Positions 12,001 to 24,000 of a stretch of DNA of 32,769 nt are shown piece by piece. Position numbers: made by a program. Position 1 is the stretch's first letter. Every line of letters starts with the position of its first letter. This DNA comes from Planctomycetota bacterium (GTDB lineage Bacteria > Planctomycetota > SZUA-567 > H5-PLA8), in the NCBI GenBank assembly GCA_038227875.1, contig JBBRPR010000083.1:1-32769 (forward strand), written 5' to 3'.

Positions 12001-15000
12001 CCCAGCTATTCCATTCGCTGTAAAACCAGCCGCAATGTTTCGCGCAACGGCAGGCCCCGCAACGGATCGACCATATAGACAAACTCCACACGTCCGCGAA
12101 GGTACGCGGCGAAGTCGGGGCGTTTCTCGCGATTCTGACTCGCCAGACCGTGTTTCAACGCGTTGTGTAAAATCGCGCGAACCTCTCGGATGTATTCGCG
12201 CGAAACGGTGGGGCGATTGTTCACCGTCAGGCCGGTCACTTCCTGGCGCTGGGACTTGCGCATGACGTGGGTCTTTTTCGGATGCTCCGTGAAGCCTTCG
12301 TCCTGCAAAATCGAGCGGACGCTGCGCAGCAGTCTGCCGACAGCGCGGGTGTCTGTCCCAGAGAACGTGAGATCGTCAGCATAGCGCGTGTACGTGAATT
12401 CGTGTTTGTGCGCCAGGCCCGCGAGCCGCCGGTCGAGTCCCCGGCAGATCGCGTTTGTGATCGCGGGACTCGTGCACGCGCCCTGCGGCAGGGAACGTTG
12501 CGCCATCGCGACGTGATAAACTTTTCCTTCCACTTCCGCGGCAACGCGCGGCGGTTCGGTGCAGAGCAGCGCCATCACTGTCGCGACATGTTCGCAGTAC
12601 CCCAGGAATTCGAACAGCCCCTTCACGCGCGGAAAGCCGACCGTTGGGAAGAAATCCTTCAGGTCGAGATTAATCACGACCGGCTTGGCCGCATGCGGAC
12701 GCGCGTTGGTCAGGATCGAGCGTGACGGAACGAAGCCGTGTGCTTCCGGTTCGGTATTCAAGCGCGCGAGAATGTTGTCCTGAATCCATTGCTGTGCTTT
12801 GGCCAGCGACGGCTTGGGCGCGGAGATGTACCGGATTCCGCCGCTCTTTTTTGGCGTGCCGTAGCGATGGTAGTGAACCAGCGTCGCGCCGCGGCGATGA
12901 TAGGAAAGCCAGCGCAGGACGCCCACAGTGATGTTCATGCGCAACGCAAGTTCGACGCCGGTGTGAATGATCGGAAGTTTGCGTGCGTCCAACTTTACGG
13001 CATCGCTGAGCGCAGGCTGCAATCCGGCGCTGACGCCAATGCCAAGATGCAGGACCGAACTTTGCCGCGCGGCTTCCCAGATCTGCTTGCGTTTCAGGGC
13101 ATCGGCCAGGCGCTTTTCCTTTTTCTCCGCGCGCCGCTTGCGGCTTTCTTCCATGCGGCGCTTGTTTTCTGCCGCGAGCGCTTTTTCAGGATTCTTGGCG
13201 TTCGAATGCTGCTGCCGGAGTTTCGAGATCTGCTTTTCGATCGTGCTGCGTTCGTCGCGCTCCGCCGGTGGGTCTTCGGGAATGGGCACGCCGTACGGCC
13301 AGAAGCCGTGCGCCCGCATGCGTTCAAGCAGCATGTGTTCGTTGGCGTGAACGATGCGCTGATACAACCAGGCTTTTTCTTTGTCTGCTGCCATGCTGTC
13401 GCCCAGACTTGAAATATTATCGAAGGGGAGCGGCGGCGCTTACGAACATCCCACGGACGAGACCGGTCCACTCAAGTGGAACCGTGCCCTGCCGCAAGCC
13501 CGCGGGGCCCGAGGCCCTATCCAGCGCGGGCGGGCAGGGCACGGTTCCACGGGTGACGAACGGGCGCGTGATGAATGCCTGACACGTGAGCAAGCGCGGC
13601 GTAACGCCGCACAGTTTGCTAAGTCGTGCCGCCGCTTCCCTCCTCGATAAAGGTTACAGAACGATCTTCGTCTGCAAGGCGACTCATATGAGCTAAACGC
13701 AACGACAAACTATGCTCGCACGGTCCCTTGGTCAACTGGTGTTTACGCGCAAATTCGCACGTACACGTCGCTTCGATGATGTGTCCCGCGTGGTCGACAT
13801 GAAGTTGCGGACGTACGCGGATTCCGTCCGCTCCTTTGGAACTGCCACTGAGTTTAAAGCCGGTGCTGACGGCCCGCCGCGCGATGATCTTCACGTTGCC
13901 GGCGTCATAGATCGCGCGCGCCGCCTTGGCCTGAAGATTCACTTCTTCGGCCGCCTGCGAGACCAGCGCCGCCGCCTGCTTGGCGGTGAACGGTTCGGCG
14001 AAGAGATCGCGATGCAGGAAGACGCCGCCGCTCAGGTCGCATATGGCACGCCCCACCTGGCACAGGTACGACAGCCCGCTGCGCGCCTGTTCGACGCCCA
14101 AGCCTGTCTGCATCGCAACGGCGCTGTCTGTGAGCGACTTGCTCTTTTTCAGGACATCGTAGACGCGCAGAAGCTCCGGCACACCCAGGGTCAGGCGCCG
14201 TGTCAGAAGATGAAATTTCGTATCGCCCGCCCAATCGTTGTCCGACCAGCCTGACAGCGCCAGCGTGAAGTTCACGGGGCCGAGGTCGAGCACATACATC
14301 GTCGGCATTCCGAATCCGGCCAGGTAGACGTCGATTCCGCGGCACGAGGGAATCAGTCGGCCCAGCATCCGCAATCGGTCGCGGCCCCACGTGCGAATGG
14401 ACTGCGCTTTCGCGCCGTCGTAAACGGATTTTGGCGAAAGCTCGATCGTGTGTTCCCAGGGTTCAAACACGACGCGGACGGGTTTGCCGGGCTCCAGTTC
14501 GTAACGCATTGCACGCGGCGATTTCTTGGCCTTGTGTGTGCGCAAGAACTGACAGATCGCGTGCAGATCCGCAGGCTCAAGTCGCAAGCGCGTGAGACTG
14601 AGTGTCATCGCGCTGTGAACCTGTAGGAAGCCCATCAGCCAACTGTCGGGCAGGTCGATTTTCTTTTCGTGGTGGGCGCTCTCGTTGAGCGCCACCGTGA
14701 AGCCGCCCGGGTCGACGGAAAAACGCGTGCGCCGGTACGAACGCATGCGCTCCAGTTCGCCGTGTAATTTCGCGCTGAAGTCGATGTTGGTCGTGCCGCA
14801 CTCCAGTTGCTCCACCTTGCTGAAAATCTCGTACTTGGCGCCGACGCGCGCGTAGCTGCTCTCATCGCGCGAAAACGCTTCGAAGAAAATCTCGCCCGGA
14901 TGGACCGTGATGACGGGGTCCAGAAAATACGAGAGCTCGTATTCGTTCTCGTAAATGTGATTGAAGAATTGCAGCCGCGCGCGGTGGAAGGGCTTCAGCC

Positions 15001-21000: not shown

Positions 21001-24000
21001 CGTCCAATAACCGGCGTCAAGGTTGTAGGTGCCGTGAGCTCTAAAACCATCGCCGCGCTTGAACGGCGGAAAACTTCCCGGGCTCTTGAATTCACACCAA
21101 GCGCCCAGCGCGTCACAGCAGGCGAGCCCCAACAGGCTCCCGAGGTAGCGTTGTAACGTTTCCATGCCGCGACATGGTACTTCCAACCCGTAGTTCAGCA
21201 ACCTAGGGTTGAACCTTGTAGCAGCATGTACTTGCTACCTAAAAAGTCACCATGACGCTGCGGCAAATCCGAAGCCGCGCGGGCCGCAAGTTGCCAGCGT
21301 CGCCTGGCCGCTGACTATCGTCCGTGCGTTTTCAAAATGGCACGTGTCCCAGTTTCCAGCACACCGTCACTGAAGCGGCGCACCATGTCTTGCATGTGTC
21401 GCGGGCATTCCGTGAAGTTCTTAAAGCCGAGCATGCGCGCAGCGCCGTCCAGATCGCGTTGCGCTGAGTTTGGCGCACTCGATTCGGTGTTTTAGCCCGT
21501 GGCCGTGTGCGCCCCGTCTGTCGCGACGGCGTGCGCGCAGCGTGCTGGATCAGACCGTAAACGACGCCCGCGAATGAAAAAACGAAATATCGAACGGCGC
21601 GCCATTAAGTCGCTCGATGATCTCGACACCGAATGGCGCGCCTGGCCGGAAACGCGCGGGTTGGTCGACAAGCCTGCGAAGTGATGCGTCGGGGGAATTC
21701 AAGACTGCGCCGGTTGAATCCGCGCAATGAAGGCCTCGAGCGCCGGTTGCGAATGTGTCAGTCCATAACGCGTGTCGCGAGCGGCCAGTGCCTGCTTTAA
21801 GGCTTTGGCGCGCTCACCGTTTTCATTCAACCAGATCGCCAACCACAGACGCCATTCGGGACGCCAGGAAAAAGCGGGCCAGCGAATCGAACTGACGGAC
21901 TTCTTGCCGAGAAAGACTTCGGCCAAATCCAGTTCGGTTCCGGTCAGGAGCTCAACGCTCGCGCGCGTGAGCTTCTGAACAGTCGGAGTTTTCAGTCGAT
22001 GGAGTGAAGACAGCAGGATCTGCAGCACGAGCGATTCCGTGAACGGAATATCGGAACGCGGCAGCGCCAGCGATTCGAGATGCGACGCGGCGCGATCCAG
22101 GTCGCCGTTTTCCAGATGCCAACGCGCCTGCAACATGGAAATGGTGTCAGCGTACACGTCGATGCCCGTGGCAGTCGCTCGCTTCAAGCTCTGCGCCACC
22201 CACGCCGAGAACAAATCGTCCTGGCGGGATTCCACGAACGAAGCGCCGACCCAGAAGAATTCCGTAACGAAGATGGTCTTTGAAAACAGAGCGTCCGGAT
22301 CGGCCAGCAGCGCTTCGCCATAGTTTGCTGTACCTGTCGACAAGGCCACGTGCATGGCGATCAGGTTGCCGAGAATGCCGATGGAGCGGCTTTCTCCAGC
22401 ATCAAAACGATTCAAGAATTCGCGCTGCATCCCGGCGCGGATCGCGCAATGAGCTACGGGCGGTGAGTTCCAATTCATCCAATCCAGTGGAATCCAATGC
22501 TCTCGCGAAAAAAAGTTGCCGGTCAACAGATCGTCGCGTCCAGCGGCAAGAGCAGTGCTGAGGTAGGACGATTCAAATCCGGGGACGCGGGTTTGAGCGG
22601 GATGCATTTTTGCGCGCATTCCACGCGCGTGCTCCAACGCCTTTTTCCACTGCGCCAGTCTCAACAGAAAGCGGATGTGTTGAATGTGGCTTTTGATCTG
22701 GCTGCCCGCGGGAGGCGTCGCGGCGCCGGCGGCGAGTCGTTGAATCTCCGCGCGGATTTCCAGATCCTGGGTGCGCGTGGCCTCGTACAGGTGTTTGACG
22801 CGGCGGTAGTGGTTGGCGGCATCGGCAATCCGGGCCCGCGCCTGACTGCGGGGAAAGCGCTGCTGCAAGGTTTGCAGTAACCTTAAACCCTTGCGCGGCT
22901 GATCCTCGGGCGTTCCCCGCAAATCCATCAGTGCTTCCTCGGCAATCGCGTACGGTTCCAGTTCGGCTCCCGCCAGGGAATGAAAAGCCTTCACCGCCGC
23001 GGCTCGGTTTTGCAGACAGACATGACAGATGCCGATCTTCAGCCGCGCTTCCAGTCCGCTGGAGCTGCCCGGACTTTTGGCCACAATCTGCTTGTAGCCT
23101 TCAATGGCCTCGGCGTAATGCCCGTACTGGAACAGGCGATCGGCGGCACGCAACGGCGGTGCGTTCAACGGCCAGTTTTGAATATGAATTTCAACCGGGC
23201 GCAAGCGGGTCTCGCGCCCCCATCCGTACAATCCCACCCGGTTCCCCGGAAATGCAGCCAGCTCGCGAAACGCGAAGACCCGCTTGCCGTCGATGCTGCA
23301 CAGCACGACGCCTTTGTCGTCCTGATATTCCAACTCCAGCAGGTAACGCTTGCCCGGCCGGAGCTCCGGGCCGCTTTGGACGAGCACGTCTGACAATCCC
23401 CGCGCGAATTTTGTACAGGAATTGAATTCAGCCCCCAGTTGAAAGAAGTACCCGGAGTACAGTGAGTAGTTTTTGAATTCCGGAGAAACGCGGTGACCGA
23501 TGATGCTGAGCTCTCCGGCTTGCGTCTCGACCCAACCTTCGCAAATCAGGCGGAAGGATGCCGGCACATCCGTTTTCCAGACCAGGATATTCTCGCGATG
23601 AAGCGAGCGGAACGCGCCGTCCTGTAGTTCCCACTCTCCCGTCTCAGTCTCCCATTCCGACTGGCTGAGTGGATGCTCCGCGTCAAACCGCACGAGCGTC
23701 CAATCCGACTGCGCATCGGTGAAGAGGCCTTGGGTGCCGCCGGGCGGTGCGGACACAAATCCCGCGGTCTGCAACGATGCGCGCAAGTGGGTTAACAGAA
23801 GTTCCAGGCGTCGGGAAAGGGTTGGCACGGGAATGCCCAGAACCGCGCTCGCCAGCTTTTGTGACAGTCCTTGTTCGCAGCAGAGGCTGACGATCTCGCG
23901 ATCCTCGGCCGGAAGCACCAGGAGCGCATGGCGGGCAGCCTGGGTGGCCTCGGCGGCGATCGAGGATTCATCGGCCGATCCCGAAAGGGAATACGCGGAG

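Follow-up and report, generated by a model that had tools for sequence, protein, structure and literature searches.

Type XIII retrons (Retron-Mxa1/Mx162, Mxa2/Mx65, Nex2/Ne144 and Sau1/Sa163) have in common with the locus described here an RT clade, a DEDE/SWIM protein and a WGR-like-plus-HEAT/ARM protein, and Mestre et al. report vertical inheritance and possible non-defence roles for them (PMC7736814). The main text of that classification paper contains no occurrence of PARP, and our literature searches found no paper linking a retron to one. In PARP1, the WGR and helical domains gate activity at DNA breaks, and the same domains occur in PARP2 and PARP3; PARP4, the vault PARP, belongs to a ribonucleoprotein that includes a small non-coding RNA (PMC10711553). 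The PARPs of Herpetosiphon aurantiacus and Clostridioides difficile are, as here, WGR plus PARP proteins of sporadic occurrence and horizontal origin; DNA dependence is described for one tested case, the Herpetosiphon activity requiring DNA (PMC4245714, PMC8120803). The partner reported for these bacterial PARPs is a PARG, whereas here it is a macrodomain of another type, an ADP-ribosylglycohydrolase (ARH) and a retron; Planctomycetota, Myxococcota and Acidobacteriota, phyla found here, are not among the six listed for PARPs in PMC8120803. Effectors of other retrons hydrolyse NAD+ and auto-ADP-ribosylate; these NAD+-using RcaT-type proteins (Retron-Sen2, Retron-Eco1) are restrained by RT-msDNA, and the preprint text describes no dedicated erasers for them (bioRxiv 10.64898/2026.10.13.758329), whereas two candidates, Macro and ARH, are present here. 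Neither the fold of these enzymes nor their type of retron is related to what is seen here.

The window, i.e. the whole 32,769-nt stretch of Planctomycetota DNA that was analysed, carries on its minus strand (12006-21201) six co-directional ORFs in the order ARH-PARP-Macro-HEAT-SWIM-(ncRNA)-RT; their coordinates and strand are as an earlier note had placed them, and its PADLOC HMM values for RT, SWIM and HEAT were reproduced (e.g. RT_XIII, 2.3e-160). PARP-Macro-HEAT-SWIM-ncRNA-RT is a tightly spaced cassette: the spacers are 18 nt (PARP-Macro) and 13 nt (Macro-HEAT), HEAT and SWIM overlap by 11 nt, and 224 nt separate SWIM from RT; the ARH-PARP spacer is 108 nt. Canonical type XIII retrons share the HEAT-SWIM-ncRNA-RT order, to which PARP and Macro are added upstream here, often with an ARH at either end.

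Table 1. Features of the cassette and the adjoining ARH gene (positions in the window)
Feature	Position	Strand	Evidence
Type XIII reverse transcriptase, 462 aa	12006..13394	-	PADLOC RT_XIII 2.3e-160; Pfam RVT_1 1.4e-21
Retron ncRNA gene (msr-msd)	13417..13650	-	sequence, covariation
a2 inverted repeat	13417-13439	-	ncRNA gene feature
Long msd hairpin	13476-13550	-	ncRNA gene feature
Lower stem	13558-13569 with 13457-13468	-	ncRNA gene feature
First msr hairpin	13594-13612	-	ncRNA gene feature
Candidate branching G, in TTAGC	13619	-	placed by analogy only
a1 inverted repeat	13628-13650	-	ncRNA gene feature
Type XIII DEDE/SWIM zinc-finger protein, 572 aa	13619..15337	-	PADLOC SWIM_XIII 1.4e-177
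Type XIII HEAT/ARM scaffold protein, 846 aa	15327..17867	-	PADLOC WGR_XIII 6.5e-97
Divergent WGR-like domain, HEAT residues 1-79	17631-17867	-	predicted fold, profile link
Macrodomain protein, 246 aa, candidate first eraser	17881..18621	-	Pfam Macro 4.5e-12
WGR-PARP_reg-PARP protein, 475 aa, predicted ADP-ribose writer	18640..20067	-	Pfam and PDB matches
ADP-ribosylglycohydrolase (ARH, DraG-like), 341 aa, candidate second eraser	20176..21201	-	Pfam, PDB

This arrangement recurs in species-representative genomes. Among the best 80 of 113 confirmed PARP loci, 56 have the retron directly downstream; 38 of these are complete, with five genes whose order does not vary (by phylum, Myxococcota 19, Planctomycetota 12, Pseudomonadota 3, Acidobacteriota 3 and 1 unassigned), and 15 are interrupted by a contig end. 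The recurrent PARP-Macro-HEAT-SWIM-RT order of the earlier note is thus far more widespread than it had claimed, and its view that a type XIII retron is joined in a single operon to PARP and Macro is supported; in many cases an ARH belongs to this operon as well. The window's contig is metagenome-assembled, which might suggest chance neighbours or an assembly artefact; the recurrence of the order in 38 genomes that are independent at species level, in part on megabase-sized contigs, together with the single retron clade and PARP co-divergence described below, refutes this explanation, to which we assign a negligible probability.

That the cassette is a distinct, recurrent variant, as the earlier note proposed, is supported by the phylogeny. 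The SWIM proteins of 43 PARP-linked loci and of the window form one clade inside type XIII (SH-aLRT 99); the lone outsider in this clade, L096, is the same cassette cut inside Macro, and the sister locus, L124, has RT, SWIM and HEAT and lacks Macro and PARP. PARP co-diverges with the retron parts (r 0.85 with HEAT, 0.84 with SWIM, 0.82 with RT; Mantel test, observed r reached in 0 of 999 permutations), and inheritance and transfer have kept the cassette together as one block in four or more phyla. We read the block as one functional unit, a type XIII sub-lineage that may have captured, once, a reversible ADP-ribosylation circuit, with sensing of msDNA or DNA ends gating the PARP; taken whole, including the single capture to which the one SWIM clade points, this reading has in our estimate a probability of roughly 45%.

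The same distribution bears on whether the genes instead serve housekeeping or stress functions, i.e. bacterial DNA-break signalling and repair by PARP, erasers and sometimes a ligase, the retron DNA serving some cellular purpose. A correlation with host 16S and possible domestication are described for type XIII retrons (PMC7736814), some loci have an ARH-DNA ligase fusion (see below), and the window flanks hold ordinary genes and no defence island. However, PARP was found in 3 of 401 genomes of Planctomycetota and in none of 8 of the family, cassettes of different phyla interleave in the trees, and there were repeated losses of the retron, with a minimum of six label changes forced by well-supported branches; these features fit an accessory, horizontally moving system, and we regard a housekeeping role as quite improbable. 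The rarity and patchiness of PARP and of SWIM_XIII (27 of 401 Planctomycetota genomes) likewise fit horizontal spread.

Covariation shows that the gap between SWIM and RT holds a conserved msr-msd gene, the source of the small RNA that a retron RT copies into DNA. The consensus fold of 39 ncRNA sequences has 43 pairs, 32 of them with compensatory changes; 89.7% of cells pair, versus 36-43% with the partners slid, the covariation score was reached by none of 500 shuffles, and the flanks out-pair all 50 shuffles in 33 of the 39 loci. Of the gap with terminal inverted repeats that the earlier note described, the msr-msd gene therefore stands, but the 5' repeat a1 lies inside the 3' end of SWIM. 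The layout is also present in other type XIII loci, including canonical loci of the same phylum. The candidate branching G doubles as the final base of the SWIM stop codon.

Judged from sequence, the catalytic motifs of the cassette enzymes are all intact. In 34 sequences the named residues of the RT motifs YADD (338-341), NAxxH (230-234) and VTG (386-388) are invariant, as are the four ligands of the SWIM CxCx12CxH motif (525-542) and SWIM D140, E153, D186 and E224, whose spacing is the published DEDE spacing. Of 81 members of the PARP family, 80 have the triad H348, Y387 and E456, as the earlier note had it for the window protein, L040 being the sole exception; the WGR motif is Y-G-R in 79, the remaining two being gapped at the motif. 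An upstream TTG at 20145 could be the PARP start, but alignments with relatives begin at residue 3 of the 475-aa protein. Pfam finds WGR (5.6e-10), PARP_reg (3.2e-19) and PARP (3.9e-28) in a 501-aa form, and the PDB search returned the PARP4 catalytic domain as closest (1.6e-50) and PARP2 WGR-to-CAT (2.3e-26). The protein thus has the WGR-helical domain-ART architecture with H-Y-E in common with eukaryotic PARP1-3 and PARP4; unlike those, it is without zinc fingers or BRCT, has Y-G-R as its WGR motif, and is encoded together with two candidate erasers and a retron. PARP4 is a mono-transferase, and because it is the closest solved relative, both chains and single units are possible products. 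The retron operon gives a large bacterial PARP family its first functional setting.

The HEAT protein is about 830-870 aa in this variant versus 982-1015 in canonical type XIII, with a more divergent WGR-like domain, and the PADLOC WGR_XIII match covers profile positions 105-614 of 973. The earlier note had taken the protein to be without its WGR part, which did not hold: the full protein gave an AlphaFold2 model of pLDDT 92.2, and in a model of the N-terminal domain (pLDDT 89) residues 1-79 form four strands and one helix; four of the best five structural matches to this domain are PARP1 or PARP3 WGR domains (Z 6.1-6.9), and Foldseek places PARP2 WGR at rank 2 (probability 0.90). Further, a profile of the domain matches a 1108-aa protein (E 7.6e-5) in a stretch that is WGR in Pfam (4e-10). 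A relocation of WGR from the HEAT protein to PARP was rejected on these grounds. With a divergent WGR-like N-terminus retained on the HEAT protein, the variant has two WGR domains, one on HEAT and one on PARP.

In the single-unit reading that we prefer, the msDNA made by the RT would be bound in a ribonucleoprotein by the WGR-HEAT scaffold together with SWIM/DEDE, like other type XIII retrons; PARP, equipped with the WGR and the autoinhibitory helical domain through which eukaryotic PARP1-3 are activated by DNA ends, would read changed msDNA (cut, debranched or released in infection) or free DNA ends and, once activated, would ADP-ribosylate targets and consume NAD+, so halting cell or invader, while Macro and ARH would strip background modification, keeping the system silent and able to reset. 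A Macro gene follows PARP in 74 of the 80 loci; the window copy and 73 of the 74 sequences from these loci have N48-x6-GG-L-D58, the remaining one having GGVD, residues 147-156 form a second glycine-rich loop, and an acidic C-terminal tail ends in a conserved DFDD motif. ARH matches Pfam ADP_ribosyl_GH (5.9e-71) and PDB 2cwc (7.9e-71) and 6dre (2.8e-50).

Loci with PARP and no retron make up 22 of 78 classifiable ones (PARP-Macro 16, PARP alone 6), and one retron-less clade takes in 8 of these species as well as a locus that is undetermined. H-Y-E is intact in all 22, so msDNA is not required for selection to keep PARP, and the 16 PARP-Macro loci mean that msDNA cannot be the sole possible PARP ligand. 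PARP-Macro might then be an autonomous, toxin-antidote-like sensor-effector that senses broken or incoming DNA ends itself and travels, and is co-expressed, with a retron whose msDNA is not its ligand. The DFDD tail also occurs in the retron-less loci shown, and therefore concerns the PARP-Macro relation, and ART-plus-macrodomain pairs such as DarT-DarG offer a precedent: there too a writer is followed by a macrodomain eraser, although DarT is not of PARP type and is without the WGR and helical domain architecture of the retron PARP. Such separability is hard to reconcile with the identical order and spacing in 38 of 38 complete loci, with the apparent single capture followed by co-divergence across four phyla, when systems that are independent tend to be reshuffled within an island, and with recruitment of ARH that depends on the retron; we consider it unlikely.

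Among the 31 full cassettes that have 1.5 kb or more of flanking sequence, 18 have an adjoining ARH, at either end and in four arrangements; none of the 22 retron-less PARP loci has one. It is also retained in L044 and L055, which have HEAT-SWIM; no RT was found within about 5 kb of PARP-Macro-HEAT-SWIM in these two or in L064. ARH thus tracks the retron and not PARP, which a modified retron component fits at least as well as a pure effector model. This favours a reading in which killing is not the task of PARP, Macro and ARH; they would instead switch the retron on or off through reversible ADP-ribosylation of RT, HEAT, SWIM or msDNA ends, the effector being SWIM/DEDE. PARP3 is reported to ADP-ribosylate DNA-end phosphates, with reversal by MACROD2, TARG1 and ARH3 (PMC5725667); fusions of ARH to NAD-dependent DNA ligase (LigA) in three scanned loci, with an ORF of the same size in a fourth, also point to DNA ends as substrate. 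Canonical type XIII retrons function without PARP, so an effector is already present in them. PARP-Macro stands alone in the 16 loci noted above, however, and is hence functional without any retron part, and PARP is the most conserved cassette protein (mean p-distance 0.35, versus 0.59 for HEAT), which is unusual for a lineage-specific regulator; a regulatory role is in our judgement a real but lesser possibility. A second retron, on contig C4, gave the PADLOC values listed in the earlier note (RT_XIII 2.2e-158, SWIM_XIII 1.7e-184, HEAT-ARM_XIII 1.2e-192).

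The anatomy of the cassette is plain at the level of its annotated genes: six ORFs, all co-directional on the minus strand (see the table), follow one another at 13-18 nt or with an 11-nt overlap, save for two larger gaps: ARH, the ADP-ribosylhydrolase gene, is 108 nt from PARP, and 224 nt separate SWIM from RT. The more likely start of PARP is 20067, not a TTG at 20145, since alignments with its relatives begin at residue 3 of the 475-aa version. A scan for promoters and terminators gave nothing above shuffles (1 versus a mean of 2.4; 15 versus 13.9), and no Rfam family matched within window 11500-21700. 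The flanks are ordinary genes, encoding a TPP enzyme, an Mn catalase, two large PKD-domain proteins and a sigma70-r4/TPR protein. The last of these, an 856-aa protein with sigma70 region 4 and TPRs upstream of ARH (21699-24269, minus strand), belongs to a family that is multicopy in this genome, with at least six near full-length matches on other contigs, and is probably outside the system.

Coordinates of the genes and RNA elements in the window, with the match or basis for each
Feature	Window coordinates	Strand	Match or basis
ARH	20176-21201	minus	Pfam ADP_ribosyl_GH 5.9e-71
PARP	18640-20067	minus	Pfam WGR 5.6e-10, PARP_reg 3.2e-19, PARP 3.9e-28 (501-aa form)
Macro	17881-18621	minus	Pfam Macro 4.5e-12
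HEAT	15327-17867	minus	PADLOC WGR_XIII 6.5e-97, profile positions 105-614 of 973
SWIM	13619-15337	minus	PADLOC SWIM_XIII 1.4e-177
RT	12006-13394	minus	PADLOC RT_XIII 2.3e-160
Outer inverted repeat	13628-13650 (5' arm, a1) with 13417-13439	minus	sequence
First msr hairpin	13594-13612	minus	consensus fold
Lower stem	13558-13569 with 13457-13468	minus	consensus fold
msd hairpin, long, sequence-variable	13476-13550	minus	consensus fold

The PARP protein contains a WGR domain, a helical regulatory domain and an ART fold, its alignment to PARP2 spanning residues 51-467, and among solved structures in the PDB it comes closest to the catalytic domain of PARP4 (1.6e-50) and to PARP2 from WGR to CAT (2.3e-26). 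The catalytic H-Y-E triad (H348, Y387, E456) is intact and is kept in 80 of 81 sequences. Passages of PMC10711553, PMC4081085 and PMC8190142 describe the WGR-HD-ART combination as common to PARP2 and PARP3 and, for PARP1, the binding of DNA breaks by WGR that releases the autoinhibitory helical domain; PARP4 has H-Y-E, yet according to a section of PMC10711553 its product is only mono(ADP-ribose). For one bacterial PARP, parts of PMC4245714 and PMC8120803 report an activity that requires DNA. Among 8000 candidates scored, 861 proteins belong to the family at E <= 1e-10, and the best 120 relatives (the window's own protein set aside) share 64-71% identity and the same three domains; PARPs on plasmids are distant only (at most 32.7% identity, 12 records). 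One related locus carries a second, divergent WGR-PARP (L019:7382-9238, a 618-aa ORF at 25% identity) just upstream of its cassette PARP.

A scan of related loci with one genome per species gave 113 confirmed loci, the best 80 of which were kept and classed by ORF and BLAST mapping followed by a fixed rule. The earlier note's statement that the same gene order recurs in other genomes holds far more widely than it had claimed, with a retron downstream of PARP in 56 of these best 80 loci; 16 have PARP-Macro only, 6 have PARP only and 2 are undetermined owing to a contig end. All five genes stand in the window's order in 38 of the 56 retron-bearing loci, 15 are ended by a contig edge, and a Macro gene follows PARP in 74 of the 80. 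By the organism names in record titles, some of whose bin labels may be wrong, the 38 complete loci belong to Myxococcota (19), Planctomycetota (12), Pseudomonadota (3) and Acidobacteriota (3), with one lacking a phylum. Within a sample of 401 genomes of the window's phylum, PARP is present in 3, only one of these being a close relative, and in none of the 8 genomes that belong to the window's family, as compared with SWIM_XIII in 27 of 401, indicating that the PARP variant is a minority of type XIII retrons in that sample. Relatives of the HEAT protein are also present in cultured Tautonia strains.

Several loci depart from this pattern. In L044, L055 and L064, PARP-Macro-HEAT-SWIM is kept and unrelated genes, with no RT, occupy about 5 kb after SWIM; ARH is still upstream in L044 and L055. 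Apparently broken cassettes or assembly errors are seen in L040 (Tautonia sociabilis; PARP alignment ending at residue 435, HEAT split over two ORFs), L065 (HEAT and RT each in two ORFs), L027 (RT fragmented) and L085 (SWIM in two ORFs). The PARPs of L046 (Alcaligenaceae label) and L050 (Gemmataceae label) are nearly identical, with end branches of 0.03, and in both PARP is followed, at an equal offset, by a gene for an arginyl-tRNA synthetase of equal size; either a recent transfer or a binning error would account for this likeness.

The retron itself has the components of type XIII, namely the RT, the DEDE/SWIM protein, a HEAT/ARM protein with a WGR-like N-terminus and an msr-msd gene. The RT motifs NARPH (230-234, NAxxH), YADD (338-341) and VTG (386-388) are present, and their named residues are invariant in 34 sequences; equally invariant in 34 sequences is the DEDE motif of the SWIM protein, at the published spacing (D140-x12-E153-x32-D186-x37-E224), and a SWIM finger CxCx12CxH lies at residues 525-542.

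The gap between SWIM and RT folds better than its shuffles (z -4.05); the decisive support for an RNA gene is comparative, rather than this folding score. A spacer of 252-955 nt separates SWIM from RT in all 38 complete related loci, and every one of these spacers contains the same 17-nt hairpin motif, which varies by no more than 4 substitutions in 37 loci and by 7 in the other. The consensus fold of 39 sequences has 43 pairs, with compensatory changes in 32; 89.7% of cells are paired, a share that drops to 36-43% once the partners are shifted by 1-3 columns, and the covariation score of 0.481 (versus 0.08-0.12 for shifted partners) was reached by 0 of 500 shuffles. The layout can be aligned with that of the PARP-less sister locus, two canonical type XIII loci and the copy on contig C4 of the same genome, and at this comparative level the conservation of the RNA gene is clear. 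Terminal inverted repeats had been placed in the gap; the repeats exist, and their 5' arm falls within the terminal part of the SWIM gene instead. Pairing of these flanks beats all 50 shuffles in 33 of 39 loci and falls short of that in L042, L059, L062, L067, L068 and L081. Just after a1, a TTAGC is conserved in most of the sequences, and its G at 13619, which doubles as the final base of the stop codon of SWIM, is by analogy a candidate for the branching G, with the placement in Ec86 as a guide; the general branching-G rule is set out in a section of PMC7736814.

From the partial PADLOC match, it had been concluded that the HEAT protein lost its WGR domain; the fold of its N-terminus and a profile link point instead to a WGR-like domain that is kept. 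Modelled in full by AlphaFold2 (pLDDT 92.2), the protein has a HEAT fold with four strands and a helix at its start (residues 6-72), and the N-terminal domain was also modelled alone from a 36-row alignment (pLDDT 89). In an all-against-representatives structure search, the top match to this domain was 2ra8_A (Z 8.3), a structural-genomics protein that we take to be WGR-containing, along with the WGR domains of PARP1 (7s68_B, Z 6.9; 2cr9, Z 6.2; 4dqy_C, Z 6.1) and PARP3 (2eoc, Z 6.5); Foldseek placed PARP2 WGR at rank 2 with probability 0.90. For so small a domain such Z values are middling, and the argument lies in the consistency of WGR among the top matches. At E <= 0.001 the N-terminal profile, run against 1.84 billion representatives, matched 133 proteins, almost all of about 830-870 aa and with the same N-terminus; it also reaches P0357 (1108 aa, E 7.6e-5), a protein in which the matched stretch is a Pfam WGR (4e-10) followed by HEAT_2. 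Pfam WGR has no direct match on the window's HEAT protein, profile-profile comparison of its N-terminus with the WGR of PARP gave nothing (probability 0.4), profile and single-sequence searches of PDB sequences with the N-terminus gave no match, and Foldseek with the whole model returned HEAT-repeat proteins only. Precomputed Pfam WGR is found in 0 of the 120 best HEAT homologues, indicating that the domain is divergent throughout the sub-family. On the basis of the fold and the one profile link we call the domain WGR-like, and conclude that a WGR-type domain occurs twice in the system, on the scaffold and on PARP.

A quick IQ-TREE phylogeny of 71 SWIM proteins places the window and 43 PARP-linked loci in one clade (SH-aLRT 99); the sole other member, L096, has ARH, RT, SWIM, HEAT and Macro, the same cassette on a contig that ends inside Macro. 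The sister, L102/L124, has RT-SWIM-HEAT of the same architecture with no Macro or PARP within 6 kb upstream, and next in the tree come canonical loci with WGR-HEAT proteins of 982-1015 aa. Across 33 loci and the window, pairwise PARP distances correlate with those of HEAT, SWIM and RT (r 0.85, 0.84 and 0.82), values reached by 0 of 999 permutations; since kin are not independent, the correlation demonstrates inheritance as a block and not interaction. Chance adjacency or an assembly artefact is ruled out by the recurrence, the retron clade and the co-divergence.

In the unrooted PARP tree, retron-less loci are nested among retron-bearing ones, and the label has to change 11 times, with well-supported branches forcing no fewer than 6 of these changes. 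With the retron forming a single clade and co-diverging with PARP, this unrooted tree is explained more simply by repeated retron loss, so that the phylogenies are most simply read as a single capture, inheritance as a block and repeated retron loss. One retron-less clade, of 8 species and one undetermined locus, has intact H-Y-E and Macro motifs, which shows that PARP-Macro can persist alone. Such free-standing loci lend some weight to a model in which PARP-Macro and the retron are two separable modules, a model that we consider distinctly unlikely. Downstream of the retron-less PARPs no recurrent partner was found among 50 ORFs chosen by hand from 131, most being housekeeping genes or having no match. 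Five loci of the retron-less clade of Polyangiales each have, downstream of Macro and on the same strand as PARP, an ORF of about 800-880 aa (L014:13185-16736, L017:9241-12789, L039:13308-16978, L036:3195-6662, L009:6138-8633), preceded in 4 of the 5 by one of about 300-350 aa; none of these ORFs matches Pfam, and they may be real genes or high-GC artefacts.

The putative erasers are Macro and ARH. The catalytic loop of Macro (N48-x6-GG-L-D58) is kept in the window and in 73 of 74 locus sequences, the remaining one having GGVD. What we take to be the MacroD-type motifs are Nx6GG[VLI]D and, in the second loop, G[VIA][YF]G; the first loop agrees, and the second glycine-rich loop, LPGLGANTG (147-156), is not an exact match. 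The best PDB sequence match is weak (DR_2288, E 0.0064). The earlier note's label 'MacroD-like' is therefore partly supported by sequence, with the domain and first loop standing and the second loop inexact. Residues about 200-246 of Macro form an acidic low-complexity tail that ends in a conserved DFDD motif, reminiscent of the SSB C-terminal tip, and this tail is also present in the retron-less PARP-Macro loci shown.

ARH covers positions 1-286 of 287 of the Pfam ADP_ribosyl_GH profile and is DraG-like (PDB 2cwc 7.9e-71, 6dre 2.8e-50). Its presence depends on the retron: it is within 353 nt of the cassette in 18 of the 31 complete loci with at least 1.5 kb on both sides, and 0 of 22 retron-less loci have it anywhere. 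It lies either upstream, co-directional (as in the window) or divergent, or downstream, co-directional (often with an overlap of the RT stop) or convergent, and the identities of 23 to 54% to the window's ARH suggest repeated recruitment. In one Myxococcota clade only, ARH and an NAD-dependent DNA ligase with adenylation, OB, HhH and BRCT domains form a single fused ORF of about 1050 aa directly after RT (L047:18227-21403, L051:18234-21410, L054:18264-21401); L053:12737-15913 is an ORF matched to it by size only. The fusion hints that ADP-ribosylated DNA ends may be a substrate. The association of ARH with the retron, these fusions and the reversible ADP-ribosylation of DNA-end phosphates (described in part of PMC5725667) would all suit a model in which ADP-ribosylation acts as a regulator or has DNA as its substrate, which we regard as somewhat unlikely.

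Retrons make branched msDNA, and in the studied types RT-msDNA restrains an effector, as stated in portions of PMC7736814 and bioRxiv 10.64898/2026.10.13.758329. By analogy, we favor the reading, with a rough probability of 0.45, that PARP is the nucleic-acid-gated output of the retron: nucleic acid would gate PARP, and Macro and ARH would hold it silent and then reset it. A non-immune role for the system is very improbable in our view, and is kept in consideration because no demonstrated function of a type XIII retron was found. A bolder proposal, which we think unlikely, is that the retron's msDNA is the physiological ligand of PARP, perhaps also its substrate. The msDNA would then be a standing, self-made mimic of a DNA end guarded by the WGR of the scaffold, and the WGR of PARP would fire once the msDNA is cut, debranched or released. 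PARP4 also sits in a ribonucleoprotein with a small RNA, as a passage of PMC10711553 describes. If the msDNA-ligand proposal is true, the origin of PARP-type DNA-end sensing would lie in a bacterial conflict system, where it would have served to read out a DNA that the cell itself makes, and the resemblance to PARP4 would reflect descent from retron-linked enzymes.

Full-text literature outside subscription journals and supplementary tables yielded no paper joining retrons with PARPs. 'PARP' is absent from the main text of the type XIII description (PMC7736814) and from a 2026 survey of retron diversity; retrons go unmentioned in reviews of bacterial PARPs (PMC4245714, PMC8120803), and the other retron paper with the term WGR uses it as the name of a dye. 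The retron-PARP cassette was thus not found in the literature examined and is a distinct variant of type XIII retrons. One operon would couple a prokaryotic writer and two erasers, a set of the eukaryotic kind, to a nucleic-acid sensor, which bears on the origin of PARP signalling. Bacterial PARPs have been known for over a decade, to our knowledge without a biological role; with most members of this PARP family, at 57-71% identity, in a retron operon, function becomes directly testable. Type XIII includes the earliest retrons discovered (Mx162, Mx65), and no demonstration of its function was found in the literature; the PARP variant would give these retrons an enzymatic output that can be read as NAD+ use and ADP-ribose marks.

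The same genome has a second type XIII retron, on the minus strand of contig C4 (G000; L087:3198-8602), with another HEAT subtype and no PARP: a 595-aa HEAT-ARM protein (PDLC02922), SWIM and RT, just upstream of which is a 338-aa ORF without any family match. Two other type XIII retrons of the phylum (L121:5681-11884, L122:1343-7699) have giant scaffolds of 2067-2118 aa, whose HEAT repeats are preceded by weak matches to WD40-like beta-propellers (PADLOC PDLC02919).
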